NCBI GenBank assembly: GCA_964576525.1 | Contig: CAZNVH010000015.1 | Location: forward strand, 39,883-103,882 | Length of the DNA stretch: 64,000 nt | From: an uncultured Enterobacteriaceae bacterium | GTDB lineage: Bacteria; Pseudomonadota; Gammaproteobacteria; Burkholderiales; SG8-39 | Direction of reading: 5' to 3' | In this document: one piece after another, positions 27,100 to 36,454 of the stretch | Layout: each line of letters opens with the position of its first letter | Position numbering within the stretch: position 1 is the stretch's first letter | The notes under the pieces: generated by a model | The model's input: only the letters and a program-made list of their open reading frames with translations | What the model was told of the DNA's origin: nothing | The model's database searches: none | Translations under genes and position numbers: made by a program

Positions 27100-28050
27100 A
27101 TGATGAATCTTCCGCTGACCCTCGCCTGCAGTCCCTACGACCACGTGCGCGACCTGCGGCCGCGCGGCATCGAGCTCACGCTGCTCGAGCTGCCGATCGA
27201 GGAGATCTTCTTCCGCTTCACCAAGTTCCAGGAATGGCACGCCTCCGAGATGTCGTTCGGTAAGGTGGCGTCGCTCGCCGCGCAGGCCGACTCGCCGATC
27301 GTGGTGCTGCCGGTGTTCCTGTCGCGGGTGTTCCGGCACTCCGCGATCTATGTGGGGAAGAACGCGTCGATCAAGACCCCGAAGGACCTGGAAGGCAAGC
27401 GCGTCGGCATCCCCGAATGGGCGCAGACCGCCGGCATCTACGTGCGCGGCACGCTGCAGCACGAGTACGGCGTGGATCTCGCGCGCATCCAGTGGTTCCA
27501 GGCCGGGGTGAGCCAGCCCGGGCGCGTGGAGAAGGTCGAGCTGCGCCTGCCCGCTGGAGTCAAGATTGTTTCGAAACCCCAGGACACCCTGGCCAGCATG
27601 CTCGGGAGCGGCGAGCTCGATGCGGTGATCTCGGCGCGCGCGGTCGACGGACAGCGCTTGTTCGCCGACTACCGCGAGGTGGAGCGCGAATACTTCAAGA
27701 AAACGCGCATCTACCCGATCATGCACGTGCTGGTGCTGCGCCGGGACGTCTATGAGCGCGACCGCTGGGTGGCGCGCAACCTGATGGACGCCTTCGAGGA
27801 GGCGAAGAACCGCAGCGTCGAGCGCATCGCCGAATTCGGCCTGTCGCACGTGCCGCTGCCGTGGGTGCCCGACCACGCGCGCCAATGGAAAGAGCTGGCC
27901 GGCGCGGATTTCTGGCCCTACGGCATCGAGCCGAACCGGCCGACGCTCGAAGCCTTCCTGCGCTATTCCTACGAACAGGGCGTGGCGTTCAAGCCGCTCA
28001 AGGTGGACGAGCTGTTCGCGCCGGAGACGCGCGAGAAGTTCAAGATCTAA
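27100..28050 (+). CDS. 4,5-dihydroxyphthalate decarboxylase-like (NMT1/THI5-like periplasmic-binding fold) protein
   Basis: 316 aa from [19 protein letters not shown]...[25 protein letters not shown]. The pattern is recalled from the PhtD-like family. The listed 385-aa ORF has an N-terminal extension antisense to thrS. Confidence 0.55.
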
Positions 28051-29000
28051 TCGATCTTGATGCCGATATCCTTCACCGCTTTCGCGTACTTGGCGTAGTC
28101 GCGGCGGATCAGCGCCGCAAATTCTTCCGGCGTGGCGACGTAGGGGTCGAGGCCGCCGGCCGCGTTCAGCTTCTCCTTCACGTCCGGGGATTCGAGAACG
28201 CGCCGCAGTTCGGTTCTCAAGCGATTGAGGATTGCCTCGGGAATATTCGCCGGGCCAAACAAGCCGAGCCAGATCGAGTTCTCGAAGCCCGGATAGAACT
28301 CGCCGATCGTCGGCAGCTCGGGATACTGCGCCGAGCGCTTCGCGCCGGACACGGCGAGCGGCCGCAGCCGGCCGGCCTTGATCTGCGGCGCGTTCGAGCT
28401 TCCCGACCACATCGCCATGGTGTCGCCCGCCACGGTCGCGGTCGCCGCCGGGGCGCCGCCCTTGTAGGGCACGTGCAGCAGGTTGATGCCGGCGCGCTGC
28501 TTGAGCATCTCCATGGTGAGATGGTGCTGGCTGCCGTTGCCGCCCGAGGCGTAGGCGAGCGGCGGGTTCGCTTTGCGCGCGTACTCGATGAACTCCGGGA
28601 AAGTCCGCACCGGCAGCGACGGATGCACCGTCAGCACGAACTGGTTGACCGCCACCGTCGACACCGGTGTCAGGTCGCGCAGCGTGTCGATCGGCATCTT
28701 GTACAGGTGCGGGTTGATCGCGATCTGGCTGTCGGCGAGCAGCCCGAGGGTATGGCCATCGGGCTGGGCCCGCGCCACGAGCTCGTTGGCGATGTTGCCG
28801 TTCGCGCCGGCGCGGTTCTCGATCACCACCGGCTGGCCGAGGTTCTCGGCGAGCTTGTGCCCGATGACGCGCGCCGCGATGTCGGGCGCGCCGCCGGGCG
28901 GGATGGGCACGATGATGGTGATCGGCCGCGACGGAAACTGCGCGAACGCGCTCGCCGCGAAGTACAGCAGCGCGAAGAGAAGAAGAGCTCGAGCCTTCAT
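28047..29000 (-). CDS. Tripartite tricarboxylate transporter substrate-binding protein (Bug/TctC family)
   Basis: 317 aa from MKARALLLFALL, with FPSRPITIIVPIPPGGAPDI..VVIENRAGANG..HVPYKGGAPA, hallmark Bug-family motifs. Confidence 0.85.
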   Translation of the reverse strand: MKARALLLFALLYFAASAFAQFPSRPITIIVPIPPGGAPDIAARVIGHKLAENLGQPVVIENRAGANGNIANELVARAQPDGHTLGLLADSQIAINPHLYKMPIDTLRDLTPVSTVAVNQFVLTVHPSLPVRTFPEFIEYARKANPPLAYASGGNGSQHHLTMEMLKQRAGINLLHVPYKGGAPAATATVAGDTMAMWSGSSNAPQIKAGRLRPLAVSGAKRSAQYPELPTIGEFYPGFENSIWLGLFGPANIPEAILNRLRTELRRVLESPDVKEKLNAAGGLDPYVATPEEFAALIRRDYAKYAKAVKDIGIKID

Positions 29001-29016
29001 TGCCAACTCGAAAGGT

Positions 29017-29244
29017 TCAGGCCGCCAGGCCTCGCGCGTGCGCGATCTCGCCACCGCCTACCTCCCTCAGTTGCCCGGTAGACAAGGTAGTCACCGCGAC
29101 CGTCTCCCCGTCCAGCGCGATGAACTCGACCTCATAGCCCCCGCCGTCGCCATGGACGAGCACTACCGTACCGACATCGCCACGCTTCAGGCCATGTTCA
29201 GGCAGGTCACACTCCAGGACTACGGCATCCAGCTCGCGGATCAT
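29017..29244 (-). CDS. DUF4926-like small protein
   Basis: 75 aa from MIRELDAVVLECDLPEHGLKRGDVGTVVLVHGDGGGYEVEF. ATGA overlap with the upstream small gene. Confidence 0.55.
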   Translation of the reverse strand: MIRELDAVVLECDLPEHGLKRGDVGTVVLVHGDGGGYEVEFIALDGETVAVTTLSTGQLREVGGGEIAHARGLAA

Positions 29245-29588
29245 GGCGATTTCCTCTTCAGCGGATGCGCGGTAGCAAACCGCGGCACCGATGTCGTTTC
29301 GCTTATAAACCATACGCTGCGCACGTTCAAGATTCTACCGTCGGGCGCGGCCAGTGGGCCGTCAACTACATAACGCGTGCCGTACGGCGTGTTCCTGACT
29401 GAAGCGACGACATTCTCCGCGGCATGCCGGCGCAGCGCTTCAGCGAGCGCTCGCCAGTTTTTCACCGTAAACCCGTGCTTCCCGAAGAATTCGGCCTTGC
29501 TCCGCCCCGCCGGGTGGGTTGACGAGAGTAAATACCGGACGATCTTTGCCTCGGAGATCTCCGCCTTATCGGCATCGGGTAATCCCAT
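29241..29588 (-). CDS. DUF6883-like small protein
   Basis: 115 aa from MGLPDADKAEISEAKIVRYLLSSTHPAGRSKAEFFGKHGF. The pattern is recalled as DUF6883. It is paired with the DUF4926-like gene in a TA-like two-gene cassette. Confidence 0.5.
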   Translation of the reverse strand: MGLPDADKAEISEAKIVRYLLSSTHPAGRSKAEFFGKHGFTVKNWRALAEALRRHAAENVVASVRNTPYGTRYVVDGPLAAPDGRILNVRSVWFISETTSVPRFATAHPLKRKSP

Positions 29589-29684
29589 TTGATCTGCTTC
29601 TCGCTGGATCCAAGCAGGTAACGCGGCCTGGCCCGCTGCAGTTGACGCGCTCGACCGCGAGCGCCGACGCATCCCAGAACCGCA

Positions 29685-29975
29685 TTAGCGGCGTTCCCGG
29701 TCCTCGGCGATCAGGCGCGCGGCATCGGCCGCCTTGCGCAGCTTCGCCGGCCTCGGCAGGCGCCGCGGCGGCGCCTTGCGCCCGAGGCGGACGATGCCGC
29801 GTCTCTCGAGCTCGGCGAGGCGCGCGTCCTGCTGCGTCCGCGTCCCGGGTTCGAGCGGCGCGAGACGCGCCACCGGTCGTCCGCGATCGGTGATCAGAAT
29901 CGTCTCGCCACCCCGCACGCGATCGACGTAGGCCGAAAGACGGTTCTTCGCTTCCGAGATCGAGGCTCGCTTCAT
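29685..29975 (-). CDS. Phd/YefM-family type II antitoxin (no cognate toxin ORF seen)
   Basis: 96 aa from MKRASISEAKNRLSAYVDRVRGGETILITDRGRPVARLAPL, a classical Phd/YefM N-terminus. The listed start at 30092 adds Gly/Arg-rich junk. Confidence 0.75.
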   Translation of the reverse strand: MKRASISEAKNRLSAYVDRVRGGETILITDRGRPVARLAPLEPGTRTQQDARLAELERRGIVRLGRKAPPRRLPRPAKLRKAADAARLIAEDRERR

Positions 29976-29994
29976 CTGGCCACTATAGCCAGAT
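29974..29994. promoter_or_regulatory. 7-bp inverted repeat ATCTGGC-N7-GCCAGAT overlapping the antitoxin start codon (candidate operator)
   Basis: Read directly. On the coding strand it is ATCTGGC-TATAGTG-GCCAGAT-G, with a TATAGT -10-like hexamer in the spacer and the ATG formed by the right arm. Confidence 0.3.
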
Positions 29995-30145
29995 CGCCAG
30001 GCTGCGGGTAACGCGCCGGGCCCGCCTCCGCCGGTCGGCGGACCAAGGCGGGCACCGGTGCGGGCCGCGGGAACCGCGGCCGTTCTCATCATGGCGGGCC
30101 CTGGACGCCCGAGTGCTCACCCGGTGCGACCGTAATCGCGCCGGC

Positions 30146-31375
30146 TCAGGCGTTCGGGCGTGCTGGCGACGCGCAGGCCGTTGTTGTTGTTGCGGTTAGA
30201 AGTCGTGTTGTTGTTGCGGTTGGCGGAGCGCAGGTTCTGTGGATTGTTGTTCCACGAGCCGCCACGCTGGACGCGCTGCGCACAAAGGGCCAGCCAGGCT
30301 CGCGCGGCGCCTCGTTCGACGGATCGAACCAGCCGCCGCGAAAGATCGCGCGCCTCAGGCGCCAGGTGTCGGCATGTTCGGCATGCGCGATCCAGGCGCC
30401 GATGCGCCGCACAACTTCCTCTCCTGTCACCGTGCCCGCGCGCCAGCGGTCGCGCAGCCCGCGCAGCCGGTTGCGGAAGCGCCTCACATTGTCTTCCGGC
30501 AGCCGGCGGTAGCCGCGCGGCGCGAGCACGTAGCCGAGAAAACGCGCCGGCGCGGCGCTCTCGGCGATGTGCGTCTTTTCGGGGTGAAGCAGGAGCCGCC
30601 TGCCGCAGAGAAAGCGCGCAAGCTCGCCCCGCCACGCTTCGAGGGTATCCACGCCGTCCGCAAACAGGGCGAAGTCGTCGACGTAGCGCACATAGGGGGC
30701 GCGCAGCACTTCCGTGGCGAAGTGATCCAGGCAGTCGAGATACAGGTTGGCGAAGAACTGGCTGGTGAGGTTGCCGATCGGCAGGCCGCGCCTGCGCCCA
30801 AAGGGCGAGAACAAATCATCTCCGGGAAAATAACGCTCGACCGGCTCCTGGCGATTGGCGCCGTCGACGATGGCATCGAGCAGCGCGAGTGTGCGCGCGC
30901 AGGCGATGCGGCGCCGGAACTCCGCCTTCAATATTTCATGATCGACGGCCGGGAAATAGCGGTAGACGTCGCAGCGGAGCACGTGGCGGTGCCGGTCGCG
31001 GTAGCGCTCGTAGCAGGCGACCGCGCGGTGCGAGCCCTTGCCCGTGCGGTTGGCATACGTGTTGGCGATGAAACCGCGCTCGAAGAGCGGCTCGACCACC
31101 GCGCAGAGCGCGTGGTGCACGACGCGGTCGCGAAACGGCGCCGCGGAGATGTTGCGCGGCTTGGGATCGAGCACGCGGAAGGTGACGTAGCCGCCGGGCC
31201 GCCAGCTTCCCTCCAGCAGCCCGCGCTCGAGCTTGAGCAGCTCGCGCTCCAGGTTGGCCATGAACGCTGCGGCGCCGGGCTTCCTGCGCTTGCCCGTGAC
31301 GGCCCGCAGCGCCGCTTCGTGCAGCGCGCGAAAGTTCGCGATGCGCGCAAAGAGGTCTTCAGCCCTGCGCGGCAC
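30146..31375 (-). CDS. DGR reverse transcriptase (Brt-like)
   Basis: Motifs KPRNISAAPFRDRVVHHAL, YANRTGKGSHRAV, LPIGNLTSQFFANLYL, YVRYVDDFALF, FLGYVL and AHAEHADTWRL. The probable start is GTG 31375 (17-nt overlap with avd), with an alternative ATG at 31453. The last 60 or so codons read through the TR in another frame (TTT runs). Confidence 0.88.
   Translation of the reverse strand: MPRRAEDLFARIANFRALHEAALRAVTGKRRKPGAAAFMANLERELLKLERGLLEGSWRPGGYVTFRVLDPKPRNISAAPFRDRVVHHALCAVVEPLFERGFIANTYANRTGKGSHRAVACYERYRDRHRHVLRCDVYRYFPAVDHEILKAEFRRRIACARTLALLDAIVDGANRQEPVERYFPGDDLFSPFGRRRGLPIGNLTSQFFANLYLDCLDHFATEVLRAPYVRYVDDFALFADGVDTLEAWRGELARFLCGRRLLLHPEKTHIAESAAPARFLGYVLAPRGYRRLPEDNVRRFRNRLRGLRDRWRAGTVTGEEVVRRIGAWIAHAEHADTWRLRRAIFRGGWFDPSNEAPREPGWPFVRSASSVAARGTTIHRTCAPPTATTTRLLTATTTTACASPARPNA
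30163..30285 (-). repeat. DGR template repeat (TR), 123 nt, AAC-rich
   Basis: Coding-strand sequence is TTGTGCGCAGCGCGTCCAGCGTGGCGGCTCGTGGAACAACAATCCACAGAACCTGCGCTCCGCCAACCGCAACAACAACACGACTTCTAACCGCAACAACAACAACGGCCTGCGCGTCGCCAG. It aligns to 31794..31922 with differences only at TR adenines plus one 6-nt indel. Confidence 0.9.
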
Positions 31376-31721
31376 GGTTCGCCTTCTTCCAGCCGCCGAC
31401 CAGGCGCCCCGTCTCGTCGAGGTTGCGCGCCGCGTGCTCGTAGCGGCGCGCATCGAGGAGCCTCAGGTCGTGCGCGAGGCGAAACAGGATGCGCAGCTTG
31501 TCCAGGCCTAGGTTCGCCGCGTCGAGCGCCTGCTCGCGCCGGCGGTCGTAGGTGGCCTCGATCAGGCGCTCGAGCACGTCGAGCGCGCCCGCCTGGATGC
31601 GGTCGCCGAGCAGGAACTTCTGCGAGCGCGGGAACTTCTCCACCGTCGGGATGAGCCACAACAGAAACCGGTACAGCGCTTCAAGAGCCGGGCCGGTTTT
31701 GCGCGCTGAGCTGTCCGCCAT
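31359..31721 (-). CDS. avd: DGR accessory variability determinant (Avd, four-helix-bundle protein)
   Basis: 120 aa with LEALYRFLLWLIPTVEKFPRSQKFLLGDRIQAGALDVLERLIEA, typical of the four-helix-bundle/Avd family. It sits between the target and the RT. Confidence 0.8.
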   Translation of the reverse strand: MADSSARKTGPALEALYRFLLWLIPTVEKFPRSQKFLLGDRIQAGALDVLERLIEATYDRRREQALDAANLGLDKLRILFRLAHDLRLLDARRYEHAARNLDETGRLVGGWKKANRAAQG

Positions 31722-31729
31722 TCAAATTT

Positions 31730-31753
31730 CCGCCGCGCCTCACGGCGCGGCGG
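31730..31753. other. Perfect 10-bp GC stem / 4-nt loop hairpin between the VR-bearing gene and avd
   Basis: CCGCCGCGCC (31730-31739), loop TCAC, GGCGCGGCGG (31744-31753). The loop on the coding strand is GTGA. It lies 40 nt downstream of the VR 3' end. Confidence 0.7.
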
Positions 31754-31783
31754 CAAGAGTCAAGGAGTCAAAGATGCAAGAGG

Positions 31784-33640
31784 CTAGTTTGTCCTGGCGA
31801 CGCGCAGGCCGAAGTCGAAGCCGCGGTAAGAAGCCGAGTAGCTGAAGTAGCCGCGGACGGCGGAGCGCAGGGACCGCGGATTGATGAACCACGAGCCGCC
31901 ACGCTGGACGCGCCGCGCACAATTGCTGGAAGTCCACGCGCTGCCGTCGCCCGGCGCCCCGGCATAGTTCGAATTCCAGCAATCCTCGACCCATTCCCAG
32001 ACGTTGCCATGCACGTCGTACAGCCCGAAAGCGTTCGGCGAATATTTTCCAACCTCCACCGTCTTGCCTTCTTTCGTCCCGGTCGGGCTCCCCGCGTAAG
32101 AGACCGAGGCATCATAGTTTGCCTGCTGCGGCGAGATGCTGTTGCCCCAGGAGAATGCGGTCGTCGTGCCGGCGCGCGCGACGTATTCCCATTCCGCCTC
32201 GGTGAGCAGCCGGTAGCTCTTGCCCGTCTTGCGCGAGAGCCAGGCGACGTACTGCTTCGCGTCATCCCACGAAACGTGGATGACCGGCCGCCGGCCGCGG
32301 CCGGAGTCGCTCGGGTTATGGCTGCAGCCGTTTTCGCGCACGCAGGCGTCCCATTCGTCGAAGGTGACTTCGTATTTGCCCGCGGCGAAGGAACGGGAGA
32401 TTGTTACCTGGTGCTGCGGGCCTTCGTCGCCGCCTCGCCCAGGCTCGGACTGGGGCGATCCCATCATGAAGCTGCCGGGCGGGATCATGATCATCTCGGG
32501 GCAGACATCGCAGTCGCGGAAGCTCGTGCCGGGCCGGGCCGAAGGAGGCGAGACCACGCTCGGCGGCGCGACAACGACCACCTGCTGCGGCGGCGGCGCG
32601 GAAATCGTGGGCGCGACAACGGTCACCTGCGGTCGCGGGGCGGAAACCGCGGGCGCGGCGGCTGGGGCCGGCGCGGGGCTCAACGCCTTCAGGCGGGCGC
32701 GGGCGACGCCGGCAAAGCGGCCCTTCGGGTACTGCTCGAGATAGGCGTTGAGCTCATCGGCGTTGCGGCTGTTCCTGACGCTCTCCCACAGCGCGAGCTC
32801 GAGCGCCACGGGATCGGTGGCGGGGGTTGCTGCCGCGGGAGTTGGCGTGGTCTGGGGAGCAGCAGCGACCTGGGTCCCAGGCCGGAAGTAGAAGTCGCCA
32901 ACCAGAGAGGTCGATTCCCAGGGCGTCTGCTTGCCGCCGGTTTCCCTGACCACGCCGGCGCGGGTGCGCTGGAAGACCTTGAGGAGATCGGTATCAGACT
33001 GATTCAGGCTCGCGAGCAGATGCTTGGTGTACGTGCCGTTGCGTCCCGCACCGTCCGCCGCCACTGAGCCGGGCGCGGTGGCGAAGGCGATGACGCTGCC
33101 AGTAGCGGCGTTCATCTGCGCGAGCCCGCGCGACGCCGAACGGAAGCTGCGCGCGAAGGGATTGTTGCGGCAGGCATCGAGGACGATGATGCTGACCTTG
33201 ACCTGCGCCTCTTCCATGGTGCGCAGCGCGAGGTTCGCATTGATCGCCAGGTCCTCGGCCTCGGCTTCGCTCTGGATGTCGGCCCCGACAGGGACGAGGT
33301 AGTTCTCCCCTTTCACCTGCACGCCGTGGCCCGCGAAAAAGAAGAGGCCGACCTGAGCGCGTCGCAGCTCGGCGCCGAACTCGCGAATCGCTTGCCGCAT
33401 GTCGCGGCTGCCGGCATTGCGCTTGAGGATAACCTTGAAGCCGAACCGCTCGAGAGCCTTGGCGATGTCCGCCGCGTCATTCGCCGGGTTGGCGAGCGGC
33501 GAGTCCTTGTAGGCCGAGTTGCCGATCACGAGCGCCACGCGCTGCTCGCCCGCCTGGGCGGGAGCGACATTGAGGTTGCGCTGCGCGGCGGCGGTGGCCG
33601 GCACAGCGGAAATCAGGACCGCGAGAAGAATCCGCCACAT
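31784..33640 (-). CDS. DGR target protein: signal peptide + caspase-like peptidase C14 domain + Pro/Ala-rich linker + FGE-sulfatase (C-type-lectin fold) domain carrying the VR
   Basis: 618 aa from MWRILLAVLISAVPATAAAQ (ATG 33640 preceded by GGGAGGG; the listed start at 33658 is TTG). Caspase His/Cys dyad contexts are FFFAGHGVQ and IVLDACRNNPF. The FGE-sulfatase region is MIMIPPGSFMMGSP...VSWDDAKQYVAWLS...RLLTEAEWEYVARAG...GLYDVHGNVWEWVEDCW...RVQRGGSW. Confidence 0.85.
   Translation of the reverse strand: MWRILLAVLISAVPATAAAQRNLNVAPAQAGEQRVALVIGNSAYKDSPLANPANDAADIAKALERFGFKVILKRNAGSRDMRQAIREFGAELRRAQVGLFFFAGHGVQVKGENYLVPVGADIQSEAEAEDLAINANLALRTMEEAQVKVSIIVLDACRNNPFARSFRSASRGLAQMNAATGSVIAFATAPGSVAADGAGRNGTYTKHLLASLNQSDTDLLKVFQRTRAGVVRETGGKQTPWESTSLVGDFYFRPGTQVAAAPQTTPTPAAATPATDPVALELALWESVRNSRNADELNAYLEQYPKGRFAGVARARLKALSPAPAPAAAPAVSAPRPQVTVVAPTISAPPPQQVVVVAPPSVVSPPSARPGTSFRDCDVCPEMIMIPPGSFMMGSPQSEPGRGGDEGPQHQVTISRSFAAGKYEVTFDEWDACVRENGCSHNPSDSGRGRRPVIHVSWDDAKQYVAWLSRKTGKSYRLLTEAEWEYVARAGTTTAFSWGNSISPQQANYDASVSYAGSPTGTKEGKTVEVGKYSPNAFGLYDVHGNVWEWVEDCWNSNYAGAPGDGSAWTSSNCARRVQRGGSWFINPRSLRSAVRGYFSYSASYRGFDFGLRVARTN
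31794..31922 (-). repeat. DGR variable repeat (VR), 129 nt, at the 3' end of the target gene
   Basis: Coding strand is TTGTGCGCGGCGCGTCCAGCGTGGCGGCTCGTGGTTCATCAATCCGCGGTCCCTGCGCTCCGCCGTCCGCGGCTACTTCAGCTACTCGGCTTCTTACCGCGGCTTCGACTTCGGCCTGCGCGTCGCCAG. It ends 7 nt before the TAG stop. Confidence 0.9.
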
Positions 33641-33751
33641 GAACCCTCCCTGGCTCAAGGCGAACTAGGCGAAGGTATTGTAGGCCTACGGGAGCAAGCA
33701 GCGGCGGTGCTGCTGCACCGACCTATAGCGGAATATCACCTGCCAGAGAAC

Positions 33752-34381
33752 CTAGAAGGAGAACTTGAGCCGCAGGTCCCAGGCGTCGACCCGGAGGTCG
33801 TCGAGGATCTGGAACCGGGTCCAGGCGATCCCAGCCGAGAGGCCTCCGGCCAGCATGTACGACGCGCCGACCCCGAAGTACGGCGAGACGCCTTCGTCCG
33901 ACGAGGCCGCGGGAACGGGCTTGTTGTCGAAGGTACCCGCGCCCGTCGCGGTCACGTCCGCGCTCCAGAAGTAGCCTCCCATGCGCGCATTGAGCCTGAA
34001 GCGCTCGATGTAGGTCTCGAAAACCGGCCCGAGAAACACGCCCGCACTCTCGATTCTCACGTTGAGCGGGCCGGGCGAATTGAACTTCAGCCGGCCGATC
34101 GCACCGGCTTGCGGCCCGGGGGCGCTGATCCCGGTCTCGCCGAGGTCGCGGTATCCGGCTTCGATGCCGACGAAACGGTTGAACATGTATCCGATGCCGA
34201 CCGACCAGGTCGCGTCGGCGCGATCCGACGAGAAACCCTGGTCCTCGAAGTCGTTGTAGTTCGTCAGCCCCTTGCCGAGGGCGACTTCGGCGAAGAACTG
34301 GGCCTGCGCCGCGAGCGCGCAAAGCCAGAGCGCGAGCCCAACGCAGAGCGAAAGCACAGGCTTCAATCGAACCTCCTTCAC
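33752..34381 (-). CDS. Outer-membrane beta-barrel protein (OmpA-like barrel / OMP_b-brl family)
   Basis: 209 aa with a signal peptide ending AAQAQ, alternating amphipathic strands and a C-terminal ...WDLRLKFSF (terminal Phe). GTG start. Confidence 0.65.
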   Translation of the reverse strand: MKEVRLKPVLSLCVGLALWLCALAAQAQFFAEVALGKGLTNYNDFEDQGFSSDRADATWSVGIGYMFNRFVGIEAGYRDLGETGISAPGPQAGAIGRLKFNSPGPLNVRIESAGVFLGPVFETYIERFRLNARMGGYFWSADVTATGAGTFDNKPVPAASSDEGVSPYFGVGASYMLAGGLSAGIAWTRFQILDDLRVDAWDLRLKFSF

Positions 34382-34391
34382 CGGAGAAATC

Positions 34392-34468
34392 TGGTAGGCG
34401 CGATTGGACTCGAACCAACGACCCCCACCATGTCAAGGTGGTGCTCTAACCAGCTGAGCTACGCGCCT
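34392..34468 (-). tRNA. tRNA-Val (anticodon GAC)
   Basis: Reverse complement is AGGCGCGTAGCTCAGCTGGTTAGAGCACCACCTTGACATGGTGGGGGTCGTTGGTTCGAGTCCAATCGCGCCTACCA, with anticodon loop TTGACAT and an encoded CCA. Confidence 0.92.
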
Positions 34469-34501
34469 AGGGTGGGAGAAATTTTATCCTAGACTAGCCC
34501 C

Positions 34502-34939
34502 GTGGAACTGATCCTGTGGCGGCATGCGGACGCCGAAGACGGCGCGCCGGACCTCGAGCGGCGCCTGACGAAGAAGGGGCGCAAGCAGGCGGCGCGCGTC
34601 GCCGCGTGGCTGCTCGAGCACCTGCCGCGGGATTTCGAGGTGGTCGCCAGCCCGGCGCTGCGCGCGCAGGAGACCGCCGCAGCGCTGAAGCGGAACATCC
34701 GCACCGAGCGCGAGATCGCGCCCGGCGCCTCGGTGGCGAAGATCCTGAGGACGGCGGGTTGGCCCGCGGGTGGTGGCACCGTGGTGCTGGTCGGCCACCA
34801 GCCCGACCTCGGGCGCGCCATCGCCACCTTGGTGTCGGGCGAGGACCGCGAGTGGCGCCTGATGAAGGGCGGCCTGTGGTGGCTGGAGAGCGGCGAGACC
34901 GCGCTGGTCAAGGCCGCGATCTCACCGGACTTGCTTTAA
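34502..34939 (+). CDS. sixA: Phosphohistidine phosphatase SixA
   Basis: (GTG)ELILWRHADAE...RLTKKGRKQA...VLVGHQPDLG, a histidine phosphatase RHG-type motif, 145 aa. Confidence 0.8.
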   Translation: MELILWRHADAEDGAPDLERRLTKKGRKQAARVAAWLLEHLPRDFEVVASPALRAQETAAALKRNIRTEREIAPGASVAKILRTAGWPAGGGTVVLVGHQPDLGRAIATLVSGEDREWRLMKGGLWWLESGETALVKAAISPDLL

Positions 34940-36454
34940 GACCGATACCTTCTTGTCCGAGAGGCCGCTGACCTCGAGCTTCATGTCGACCGCTTTCCAG
35001 TGGCCGGCCTCGGCGTCCAGCGCGTCGGCCGACAGCGGGTTGTCGTCGATCCAGGACTGAGGCAGGTCGATGGCGAAGCCGCCGGCATCGGCGGCGACGC
35101 GCAGGAACGGCAGGCGCGCATCGCTGCGGCTCCTCAGGATGAGCGAGGCGAGGCGCAGCGCGAACACCAGCTTCCAGTCGGCGCCCTCCAGGCCCGCGTC
35201 CTGCACCTTGGCGAGCTTGCCGCGGTGCGCGAGCACGATGCGCGCCAGGCGCGCCTGCTCCATGCGCGAGAACCCCGGCATGTCGGCGTTCGACAGCACG
35301 TACGCCGAATGCTTGTGGTACGCGGCGTGCGCGATCGACAGGCCGATCTCCGCCAGGCGCGCCGCCCACTCGAGCATCAGGCGATCGGCGTCGTCCTCGC
35401 GCTCCGTCCCCGGAGCGAGACCATCATAAATTTTTATTGATAACGCCCTGGTTCTTTCCGCCTGCACGGCATCCACGTGATAGCGGCGCATGAACTGCGC
35501 CACCGTCGCCTCGCGCATGTCGCGGTGCTGCACGCGCCCGAGCAGGTCGTAGAGCACGCCGTGGCGCAGCGCGCCCTCGGAGATCTTCATCGCCTCGAGG
35601 CCGAGCGCGTCGAACACCGCGGTCATGATCGCGAGCCCGCCGGGCAGCACCGGCGCGCGGTTCGGCCGCAGCCCGGCGATCCGATCCGGGTCGGCTCTTT
35701 CGTTCTTCAACAACAAGGTTCTCAATCGTTCCAGGCCTTCGCGGGTAATCCCGTCCCCGGCGAAGCCGTTCTCGCGCAGGATGTTCTCGATCGAGCGCGC
35801 GGTGCCCGAGGAGCCGACCGCCTCGTCCCAGCCGGCGGTGCGGTAGGCCTGGATCAGCGCGGCGAGCTCCTGGCGCGCGGCGAGCTCGGCTGCCTTCATG
35901 CGCGATTTGTCGATGCGGCCCTCGGGGAAGTATTTCAGGCTGTAGCTGACGCAGCCCATGTAGAGCGACTCGGTGAGCTGCGGCTCGAGGCCGGTGCCGA
36001 TGATGAACTCGGTCGAGCCGCCGCCGATGTCGACCACCAGGCGGCGCGCCTTTTCCGATCCTGGCGAGGCCGGCATCGCATGCGCCACGCCGAGGTAGAT
36101 CAGGCGCGCCTCCTCGCGGCCCGAGATCACCTCGATCGGGAAGCCGAGCGCGGCGCGCGCCTCGCGCAGGAACTGCGGCGCGTTCTTCGCCACGCGCAGC
36201 GCGTTGGTGCCGACCGCGCGCACCGCGGGCCGCGCGAAGCCGCGCAGCCGCTCGCCGAACTTGGCCAGCGCCTCGAGCGCCACCGCCTGCTTCGCGCGGT
36301 CGATGCGCCTCTCGGGGGTCAGCCCGGCGCCCAGGCGCACCACCTCGCGCACCGCGTCGAGCGGGTAGATCTGGCCGTCGACCACGCGGCCGATCTCGAG
36401 GTGGAAGCTGTTGGAGCCGAGGTCGACCGCGGCAAGCGTTTCATGGCGTGCCAT
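34922..36454 (-). CDS. ppx: Exopolyphosphatase (Ppx/GppA family)
   Basis: 510 aa with AAVDLGSNSFHLEIGRV, VRAVGTNALRVAKN, ISGREEARLIYLGV and VVDIGGGSTEF. Divergent from ppk. Confidence 0.9.
   Translation of the reverse strand: MARHETLAAVDLGSNSFHLEIGRVVDGQIYPLDAVREVVRLGAGLTPERRIDRAKQAVALEALAKFGERLRGFARPAVRAVGTNALRVAKNAPQFLREARAALGFPIEVISGREEARLIYLGVAHAMPASPGSEKARRLVVDIGGGSTEFIIGTGLEPQLTESLYMGCVSYSLKYFPEGRIDKSRMKAAELAARQELAALIQAYRTAGWDEAVGSSGTARSIENILRENGFAGDGITREGLERLRTLLLKNERADPDRIAGLRPNRAPVLPGGLAIMTAVFDALGLEAMKISEGALRHGVLYDLLGRVQHRDMREATVAQFMRRYHVDAVQAERTRALSIKIYDGLAPGTEREDDADRLMLEWAARLAEIGLSIAHAAYHKHSAYVLSNADMPGFSRMEQARLARIVLAHRGKLAKVQDAGLEGADWKLVFALRLASLILRSRSDARLPFLRVAADAGGFAIDLPQSWIDDNPLSADALDAEAGHWKAVDMKLEVSGLSDKKVSVLKQVR

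Follow-up and report, generated by a model that had tools for sequence, protein, structure and literature searches.

Repeat pairs of unequal length are known from earlier work on diversity-generating retroelements (DGRs), in which the variable repeat (VR) of a target gene is written from a template repeat (TR). Wu et al. 2018 (NAR 46:11, PMC5758913) found that TR and VR differ in length in 25 of 372 DGRs (about 7%), that 14 of these 25 differences are multiples of 3 bp and in frame, and that 74% of the TR/VR indels adjoin AAC in the TR. Template slippage of the reverse transcriptase (RT) on AAC repeats was proposed as the cause, and nearly all of the in-frame cases were found among non-phage, Lineage-4-related DGRs (PMC5758913). 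The slippage model is also cited in a 2026 reconstitution study in PLoS Genetics, where homing copied an 18-nt segment present only in the TR into a VR without such a segment (PMC12875486).

The DGR described here lies in a stretch of DNA of 64 kb, which was analysed as a whole and is called the window below. It has the features of the class recognised by Wu et al.: the TR is 123 nt and the VR 129 nt, the difference is a multiple of 3 that keeps the frame, and the gap can be placed only within the stretch CGC-(AAC)3-ACG. Like the cases of that survey (Fig. 4C, 'Mutagenic patterns'), it combines an in-frame VR indel facing TR AAC repeats with an otherwise pure A-to-N pattern. Furthermore, it shares with the published in-frame cases a chromosomal, non-phage location, an FGE-type target and the same part of the RT tree. 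It differs from them in being apparently outside their 372 DGRs, in that the polarity of the change is indicated by comparison, and in that a second case occurs in its nearest relative.

The DGR of Treponema denticola, with its target TvpA, is like the one in the window in three respects: it belongs to a cellular host, its TR has many AAC codons, and its VR makes up the C-terminal portion of an FGE-sulfatase/C-type-lectin domain. Unlike TvpA, the target in the window carries an N-terminal caspase (Peptidase_C14) domain, and the order target-avd-RT-TR, with an RT ORF that runs through the TR, is another difference. The DGR of Bordetella phage BPP-1 (mtd-avd-TR-brt) resembles the window in having Avd, an RT with the motifs I/LGxxxSQ and YxDD, adenine-specific TR/VR mutagenesis, a GC-rich start of the IMH and a GC hairpin downstream. 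It is unlike the window in being phage-borne, in its Mtd-type lectin and in a TR located upstream of the RT. The TR and VR of BPP-1 are also equal in length, at 134 bp, unlike those of the window.

Judged by its parts, the locus is a complete, canonical chromosomal DGR with a cassette that looks intact, arranged on the minus strand in the order target-VR, hairpin, bAvd, RT and TR (Table 1). The target protein has a signal-like N-terminus, a Peptidase_C14 (caspase) domain (PF00656, residues 40-257, 6e-39), a linker and an FGE-sulfatase/C-type-lectin domain (PF03781, residues 386-622, 5e-56), and the last 45 codons of its gene are the VR. The 3' ends of TR and VR have a GC-rich 17-mer in common and diverge at the next base, which is G in the VR and C in the TR. 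The VR 3' end together with ACAAACTAG is conserved in the relatives L001, L101, L102, L104, L130 and L133. The hairpin downstream of the VR folds with a z of -3.45, and none of 200 shuffles folded equally well. It is a candidate DGR target-recognition hairpin or cruciform, and is possibly also a terminator.

Table 1. Coordinates of the features of the DGR in the 64-kb window.
Feature	Position	Strand	Description	Evidence
TR	30163-30285	-	123 nt, directly after RT domain	repeat finder, MAFFT, gap scan
VR	31794-31922	-	129 nt	24 A-to-N differences from TR, 0 non-A
(AAC)3 run of TR	30207-30215	-	faces the five-codon VR run	
Five VR NNC codons, GGC TAC TTC AGC TAC	31838-31852	-	face TR (AAC)3; include two extra codons	
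DGR target gene	31784-33658	-	624-aa ORF from first start codon; 618 aa in database	
GC-rich VR 3' end, start of IMH	31794-31810	-	GGCCTGCGCGTCGCCAG	MAFFT, copy search
GC-rich hairpin	31730-31754	-	10-bp stem, GTGA loop; ~40 nt downstream of VR	
Accessory variability determinant bAvd	31359-31721	-	120 aa	Pfam PF22296, 4.8e-18
DGR reverse transcriptase ORF	30146-31453	-		Pfam RVT_1 PF00078, 4.2e-14
Conserved non-coding block after TR	30085-30106	-	GTCCAGGGCCCGCCATGATGAG	alignment with L070, L071, L072

The RT carries the motifs IGNLTSQ (30758-30778) and YVDD (30674-30685). Its real start is probably near 31390, and its ORF runs through the TR in another frame (30146-30300, minus strand). The block with the pattern GTCCAGGG(C/G)C.GCCATGATGAG is strongly conserved 60-80 nt after the TR in the window, L070, L071 and L072, and its motif appears as 'VQG' in many RT read-through tails. 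The block is probably part of the DGR RNA, as a spacer/priming-type region. It overlaps the annotated ATG of a 135-aa ORF (29685-30092), for which the internal MKRASISEAK is likely the real Phd/YefM start. Directly downstream of the DGR (29017-30092, minus strand) are this Phd/YefM antitoxin-like gene and a DUF6883/DUF4926 gene pair, the latter consisting of overlapping small ORFs of toxin-antitoxin-like character, and a Bug/TctC-type periplasmic binding protein (28047-29054) comes next after the pair.

A gapless repeat finder returned the TR/VR pair as two blocks, 30216-30285/31853-31922 with an offset of 1637 nt and 30160-30213/31791-31844 with an offset of 1631 nt, and the difference between the offsets implies a 6-nt indel between the repeats. 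With the ends of both repeats set by their common anchors (TTGTGCGC at the 5' end and GTCGCCAG at the 3' end), the MAFFT alignment of the coding minus strand contained a single 6-nt gap. All 24 substitutions between TR and VR fall on TR adenines, of which there are 33 (14 of them in AAC/AAT codon runs), and none on the 90 non-A positions; for 24/24 mismatches on 33 A's of 123 TR positions, p = 1.9e-14. Given that all 90 non-A positions are identical on both sides of the gap, the VR appears to have been written recently from this TR sequence.

This identity also bears on the possibility that some other sequence served to write or convert the VR: a second TR allele or DGR elsewhere in the genome or, by gene conversion, a caspase-FGE paralog whose loop is longer. 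Such sources are conceivable, as caspase-FGE paralogs that lack a neighbouring RT occur commonly and may be tandem, and as the visible part of the genome amounts to 64 kb. Neither Avd nor RT lies close to many homologs of the caspase-FGE or FGE-only type (L001, L004, L140, L141 and L142), and L141 has two such genes in tandem; genes of this kind may be targets distant from their DGR, or they may carry orphaned VRs that are now frozen. Against another source stand the match of 90/90 non-A VR positions to this very TR on both gap sides and the many non-A positions at which the TRs of relatives differ from it. Furthermore, no TR/VR copy beyond these two was found in the 64-kb window. We therefore regard another source as very unlikely.

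A single 6-nt gap that leaves zero non-A mismatches can be placed only at TR positions 69-80, within CGC-(AAC)3-ACG, and a pair of 3-nt gaps is likewise confined to TR positions 68-80. Placing the extra 6 nt elsewhere, or splitting them over both AAC runs, was rejected, because zero non-A mismatches were obtained only at positions 68-80. In codons, the TR reads AAC CGC AAC AAC AAC ACG ACT TCT AAC CGC (AAC)4 GGC, and the VR reads GTC CGC GGC TAC TTC AGC TAC TCG GCT TCT TAC CGC GGC TTC GAC TTC GGC. Hence, where the TR has three AAC codons the VR has five codons, all of them NNC, with the templated C kept in 5/5. The gap is in frame, and the target ORF remains open through the VR to its TAG stop. 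The sequence-only reading of this DNA had identified the two repeats, given them lengths of 123 and 129 nt, located the 6-nt difference inside the AAC run and written out both codon strings with two extra NNC codons (five against three). The repeat finder, MAFFT and the gap scan bore all of this out: the coordinates were right to the base, the two offset blocks and the one MAFFT gap gave the same 6 nt, and zero non-A mismatches resulted only with the gap in that run.

An ordinary DNA insertion into the VR after homing, by replication slippage or duplication and unrelated to the RT, would also lengthen the VR. The target family tolerates in-frame indels of surface loops, with segments (measured as defined below) of 31-36 aa among homologs. 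At the VR indel site, however, no tandem 3- or 6-nt duplication was found, and the VR run is not repetitive, so that DNA slippage would have no substrate there. The inserted codons match the NNC pattern of AAC templating, and no other non-A change has accumulated in the VR. An insertion of this kind is, in our view, scarcely credible.

To see which repeat has the usual length, we turned to the RT clade, sampled as 65 genome loci, three more from the closest RT homologs and 120 RT proteins. Most of the 65 related RT loci carry A-biased TR/VR pairs, and relatives at 59-78% identity adjoin such pairs; the protein search (120 RT proteins) returned no RT with more than 78% identity to that of the window. 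There were 42 distinct A-biased pairs, and the TR was measurable in 36. The list of pairs is the union of two self-BLAST surveys, of which the one with looser gap costs lost several pairs by over-extension that diluted the A-bias. As a measure of length we took the segment that begins at the conserved TGG and runs to the G[FL]R codon. All 36 measurable TRs of RT relatives have a segment of 72 nt, and the equivalent part of RT read-through tails, read in the VR frame, is 24 aa in 23 of 24. In the window it is 72 nt in the TR and 78 nt in the VR. A TR of 72 nt gives no sign of having lost anything. In the target family, the same segment has the TR-encoded length of 32 aa in 79 of ~110 homologs, the window VR encodes 34, and lengths from 31 to 36 aa occur. 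Off-length segments of 31-36 aa were also found among homologs without nearby Avd or RT, and no RT was found near any of the off-length homologs P0022, P0036, P0021 and P0065 that has a contig (one is without DNA). Where the window TR has an uninterrupted (AAC)3, most relatives have AAC-AGG-AAC.

Read-through of the RT ORF is common in this clade, and many homologs end in 'TTT...TTTT' (poly-Thr) tails or score as FGE-sulfatase. The RT ORFs run through the TR, which gives some RT proteins a spurious FGE-sulfatase (PF03781) match or a poly-Thr tail; read-through proteins noted were P0137, P0213, P0214, P0217 and P0219. TR sequences can thus be read from such tails at no extra cost.

The alternative in which the TR is the changed copy holds that the TR was once (AAC)5, wrote the 129-nt VR and then lost two AAC by replication slippage, with no full-length homing since. 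Short trinucleotide runs are prone to slippage in DNA replication, and a length of +6 is common to three orthologous VRs, namely those of the window, L001 and L003. The absence of later homing fits as well: homing copies TR-only sequence into the VR (PMC12875486), so that any subsequent full-length copying of the present TR would have brought the VR back to 123 nt. The clade survey speaks against this account. Two events would be needed, an earlier expansion and then a return to exactly the clade-invariant 72 nt seen in 36/36 TRs and 23/24 tails, and no TR with a longer segment was found among about 60 TRs.

The closest relatives add to this. L070, a short-read contig (ENA ERZ1079234 k127_772748), has the closest RT with both repeats (78% aa). 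Its VR is at 80-192 and its TR at 1716-1834; the TR has the canonical 72-nt segment, and the VR is 6 nt shorter and in frame. The gap falls at TR 'AAT C[CTCAGA]AT CTG', with 14 mismatches at A and 0 at non-A positions, a different site from that of the window indel and of opposite sign. L070 thus demonstrates that a deviant VR can stand beside a canonical TR, and in both in-frame cases, window and L070, the VR is the deviant copy (2/2). A canonical TR beside a deviant VR in both cases is what would be expected from indels in cDNA synthesis or integration, and not from mutation of the TR.

By nucleotide identity, the closest complete VRs are those of L130 (83%) and L133 (80%), and both are of canonical length, with segments of 72 nt and 71 nt. 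RT and TR have been lost in both, and the DGR is often decayed in such near relatives: L130 retains the target and avd, with just ~180 nt left of the RT, and L133 has an in-frame stop in its 71-nt VR segment and no RT. The orthologous targets of L001 (P0003, 76% aa) and L003 (P0005, 69% aa) have 78-nt VR segments like the window. L001 comes from SRR25547169 and L003 from SRR33230281, and L104 and L130 come from Ga0187893. The TRs of L001/P0003, L003/P0005 and L004/P0004 were not found on their contigs, which have no Avd or RT beside the target; those of L001 and L003 are missing because there is no RT near those genes. In a neighbour-joining tree from the 600 nt upstream of the VR, which is unbootstrapped and has close distances, the window groups with L130 (72 nt) and L001 with L133 (71 nt), and L003 branches off at the base. 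These placements make the +6 state scattered and not monophyletic, which fits recurrent gain at a hotspot and would be compatible with an ancestral (AAC)5 TR as well. The sequence-only reading had proposed comparing TR and VR in related genomes, and the comparison gave the canonical 72-nt segment in 36/36 measurable TRs of relatives and 78-nt VR segments in L001 and L003. Taken with the canonical VRs of L130 and L133, the scatter of the +6 state and the deviant VR of L070, the two events needed lead us to consider contraction of the TR unlikely.

When metagenomes were scanned with the IMH pattern GGYCTGCGCGTSGCCAGSAC, 67 loci were obtained, mostly unrelated genes. Eight were VR ends (L085, L088, L098, L101, L102, L104, L130 and L133), and no TR was recovered among the 67 loci. 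L101 (JGI Ga0099794_10033802) is syntenic with window positions 28789-35695 at 81-85% nt and is without the OMP gene, the target-gene body and avd-RT-TR, that is, nearly the whole element. All that remains between its tRNA and Phd antitoxin genes is a 53-nt scar, which equals the 3' end of the VR with the stop codon (window 31765-31817). The scar indicates that the DGR block adjoining the tRNA (window 34395-34468) is variably present or decays.

VRs break or confuse assemblies, and one near relative illustrates this: the assembly of L104 (90% nt) broke at the VR, with the contig terminating precisely at the IMH. This break may also be an indirect hint of ongoing mutagenic retrohoming. We considered an assembly or consensus artefact, by mis-assembly of the hypervariable region or of a low-complexity run. 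TR/VR gaps of 1-2 nt in six relatives (L009, L017, L027, L028, L042 and L060), all long-read MAGs (MFD/UUID isolates), resemble consensus errors. These gaps, which in L042 include a compensating +1/-1 pair, probably are consensus errors in a hypervariable region and not comparable with the clean in-frame cases; frameshifting DGR indels have also been described in the literature. In the window, the difference is exactly two codons, both NNC, with the ORF left open. The AAC run of only 9 nt is below any assembly k-mer, and the VR is without an internal repeat able to loop a graph. Furthermore, an independent in-frame case is present in the short-read contig L070, and 14 such cases have been published (PMC5758913). 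An artefact is accordingly highly improbable.

In the reading that we hold to be probable, the VR gained its two codons when the RT slipped on the (AAC)3 template in the most recent retrohoming. As the present VR was being written, either the RT or the growing cDNA strand would have slipped back by two AAC units in the CGC-(AAC)3-ACG stretch of the TR RNA. The resulting cDNA would have contained five adenine-mutagenised NNC codons in place of three, and this longer cDNA would then have been integrated in frame into the target gene. We infer, from sequence comparison, both that the change lies on the cDNA/VR side and that slippage was its cause. That all five VR codons have the form NNC is what templating of each by AAC would predict. 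A gain on the VR side is favoured over contraction of the TR since the TR has the clade-invariant length, the VR is deviant and L070 presents the same pattern. It is this polarity, with the TR canonical and the VR deviant in the window and L070, that points to slippage as the origin of the indel, and the argument draws on these two in-frame cases. The 78-nt VRs of L001 and L003 count against it, as the ancestral TR could have had five or more AAC codons. To our knowledge, slippage of a DGR RT giving in-frame insertions has been proposed from surveys and never demonstrated directly.

Three causes had been listed in the sequence-only reading: loss of two AAC codons from the TR, slippage of the RT on (AAC)n, and a VR written from a different TR allele. 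Slippage of the RT is the one favoured here, and loss from the TR is the less likely given a TR of clade-typical length and a deviant VR. The statement that the length difference dates or constrains the activity of the element would hold only if the TR lost two codons; had the extra codons arisen in the last homing event itself, nothing would be dated. The description of the locus as a rare case of length diversification was overstated, as 25 of 372 DGRs were already reported with length differences (PMC5758913).

The DGR in the window is therefore a further example of a documented by-product of copying AAC repeats, and not a new phenomenon. To the in-frame length changes facing AAC repeats it adds one clean example and a second in the nearest relative. 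The polarity of these cases (TR canonical, VR deviant) is the type of evidence that separates RT slippage from mutation of the template, and it is not discussed in the 2018 survey. No new principle follows, and the understanding of DGRs is unchanged. With its short uninterrupted (AAC)3 run, the locus would be a reasonable substrate for a reconstituted assay.

There are hints that length change recurs: the window, L001 and L003 each have two codons more (+2), and L070 has two fewer (-2). The uninterrupted (AAC)3 run, as opposed to the AAC-AGG-AAC of most relatives, may act as a hotspot. Recurrent, retained length variation has already been hypothesised. For the proteobacterial caspase-FGE DGR lineage, we consider it possible, though rather doubtful, that in-frame codon indels at A-rich template runs are a recurrent product of retrohoming that is retained by selection. 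If this were true, the DGR would diversify the length of the loop as well as its sequence.
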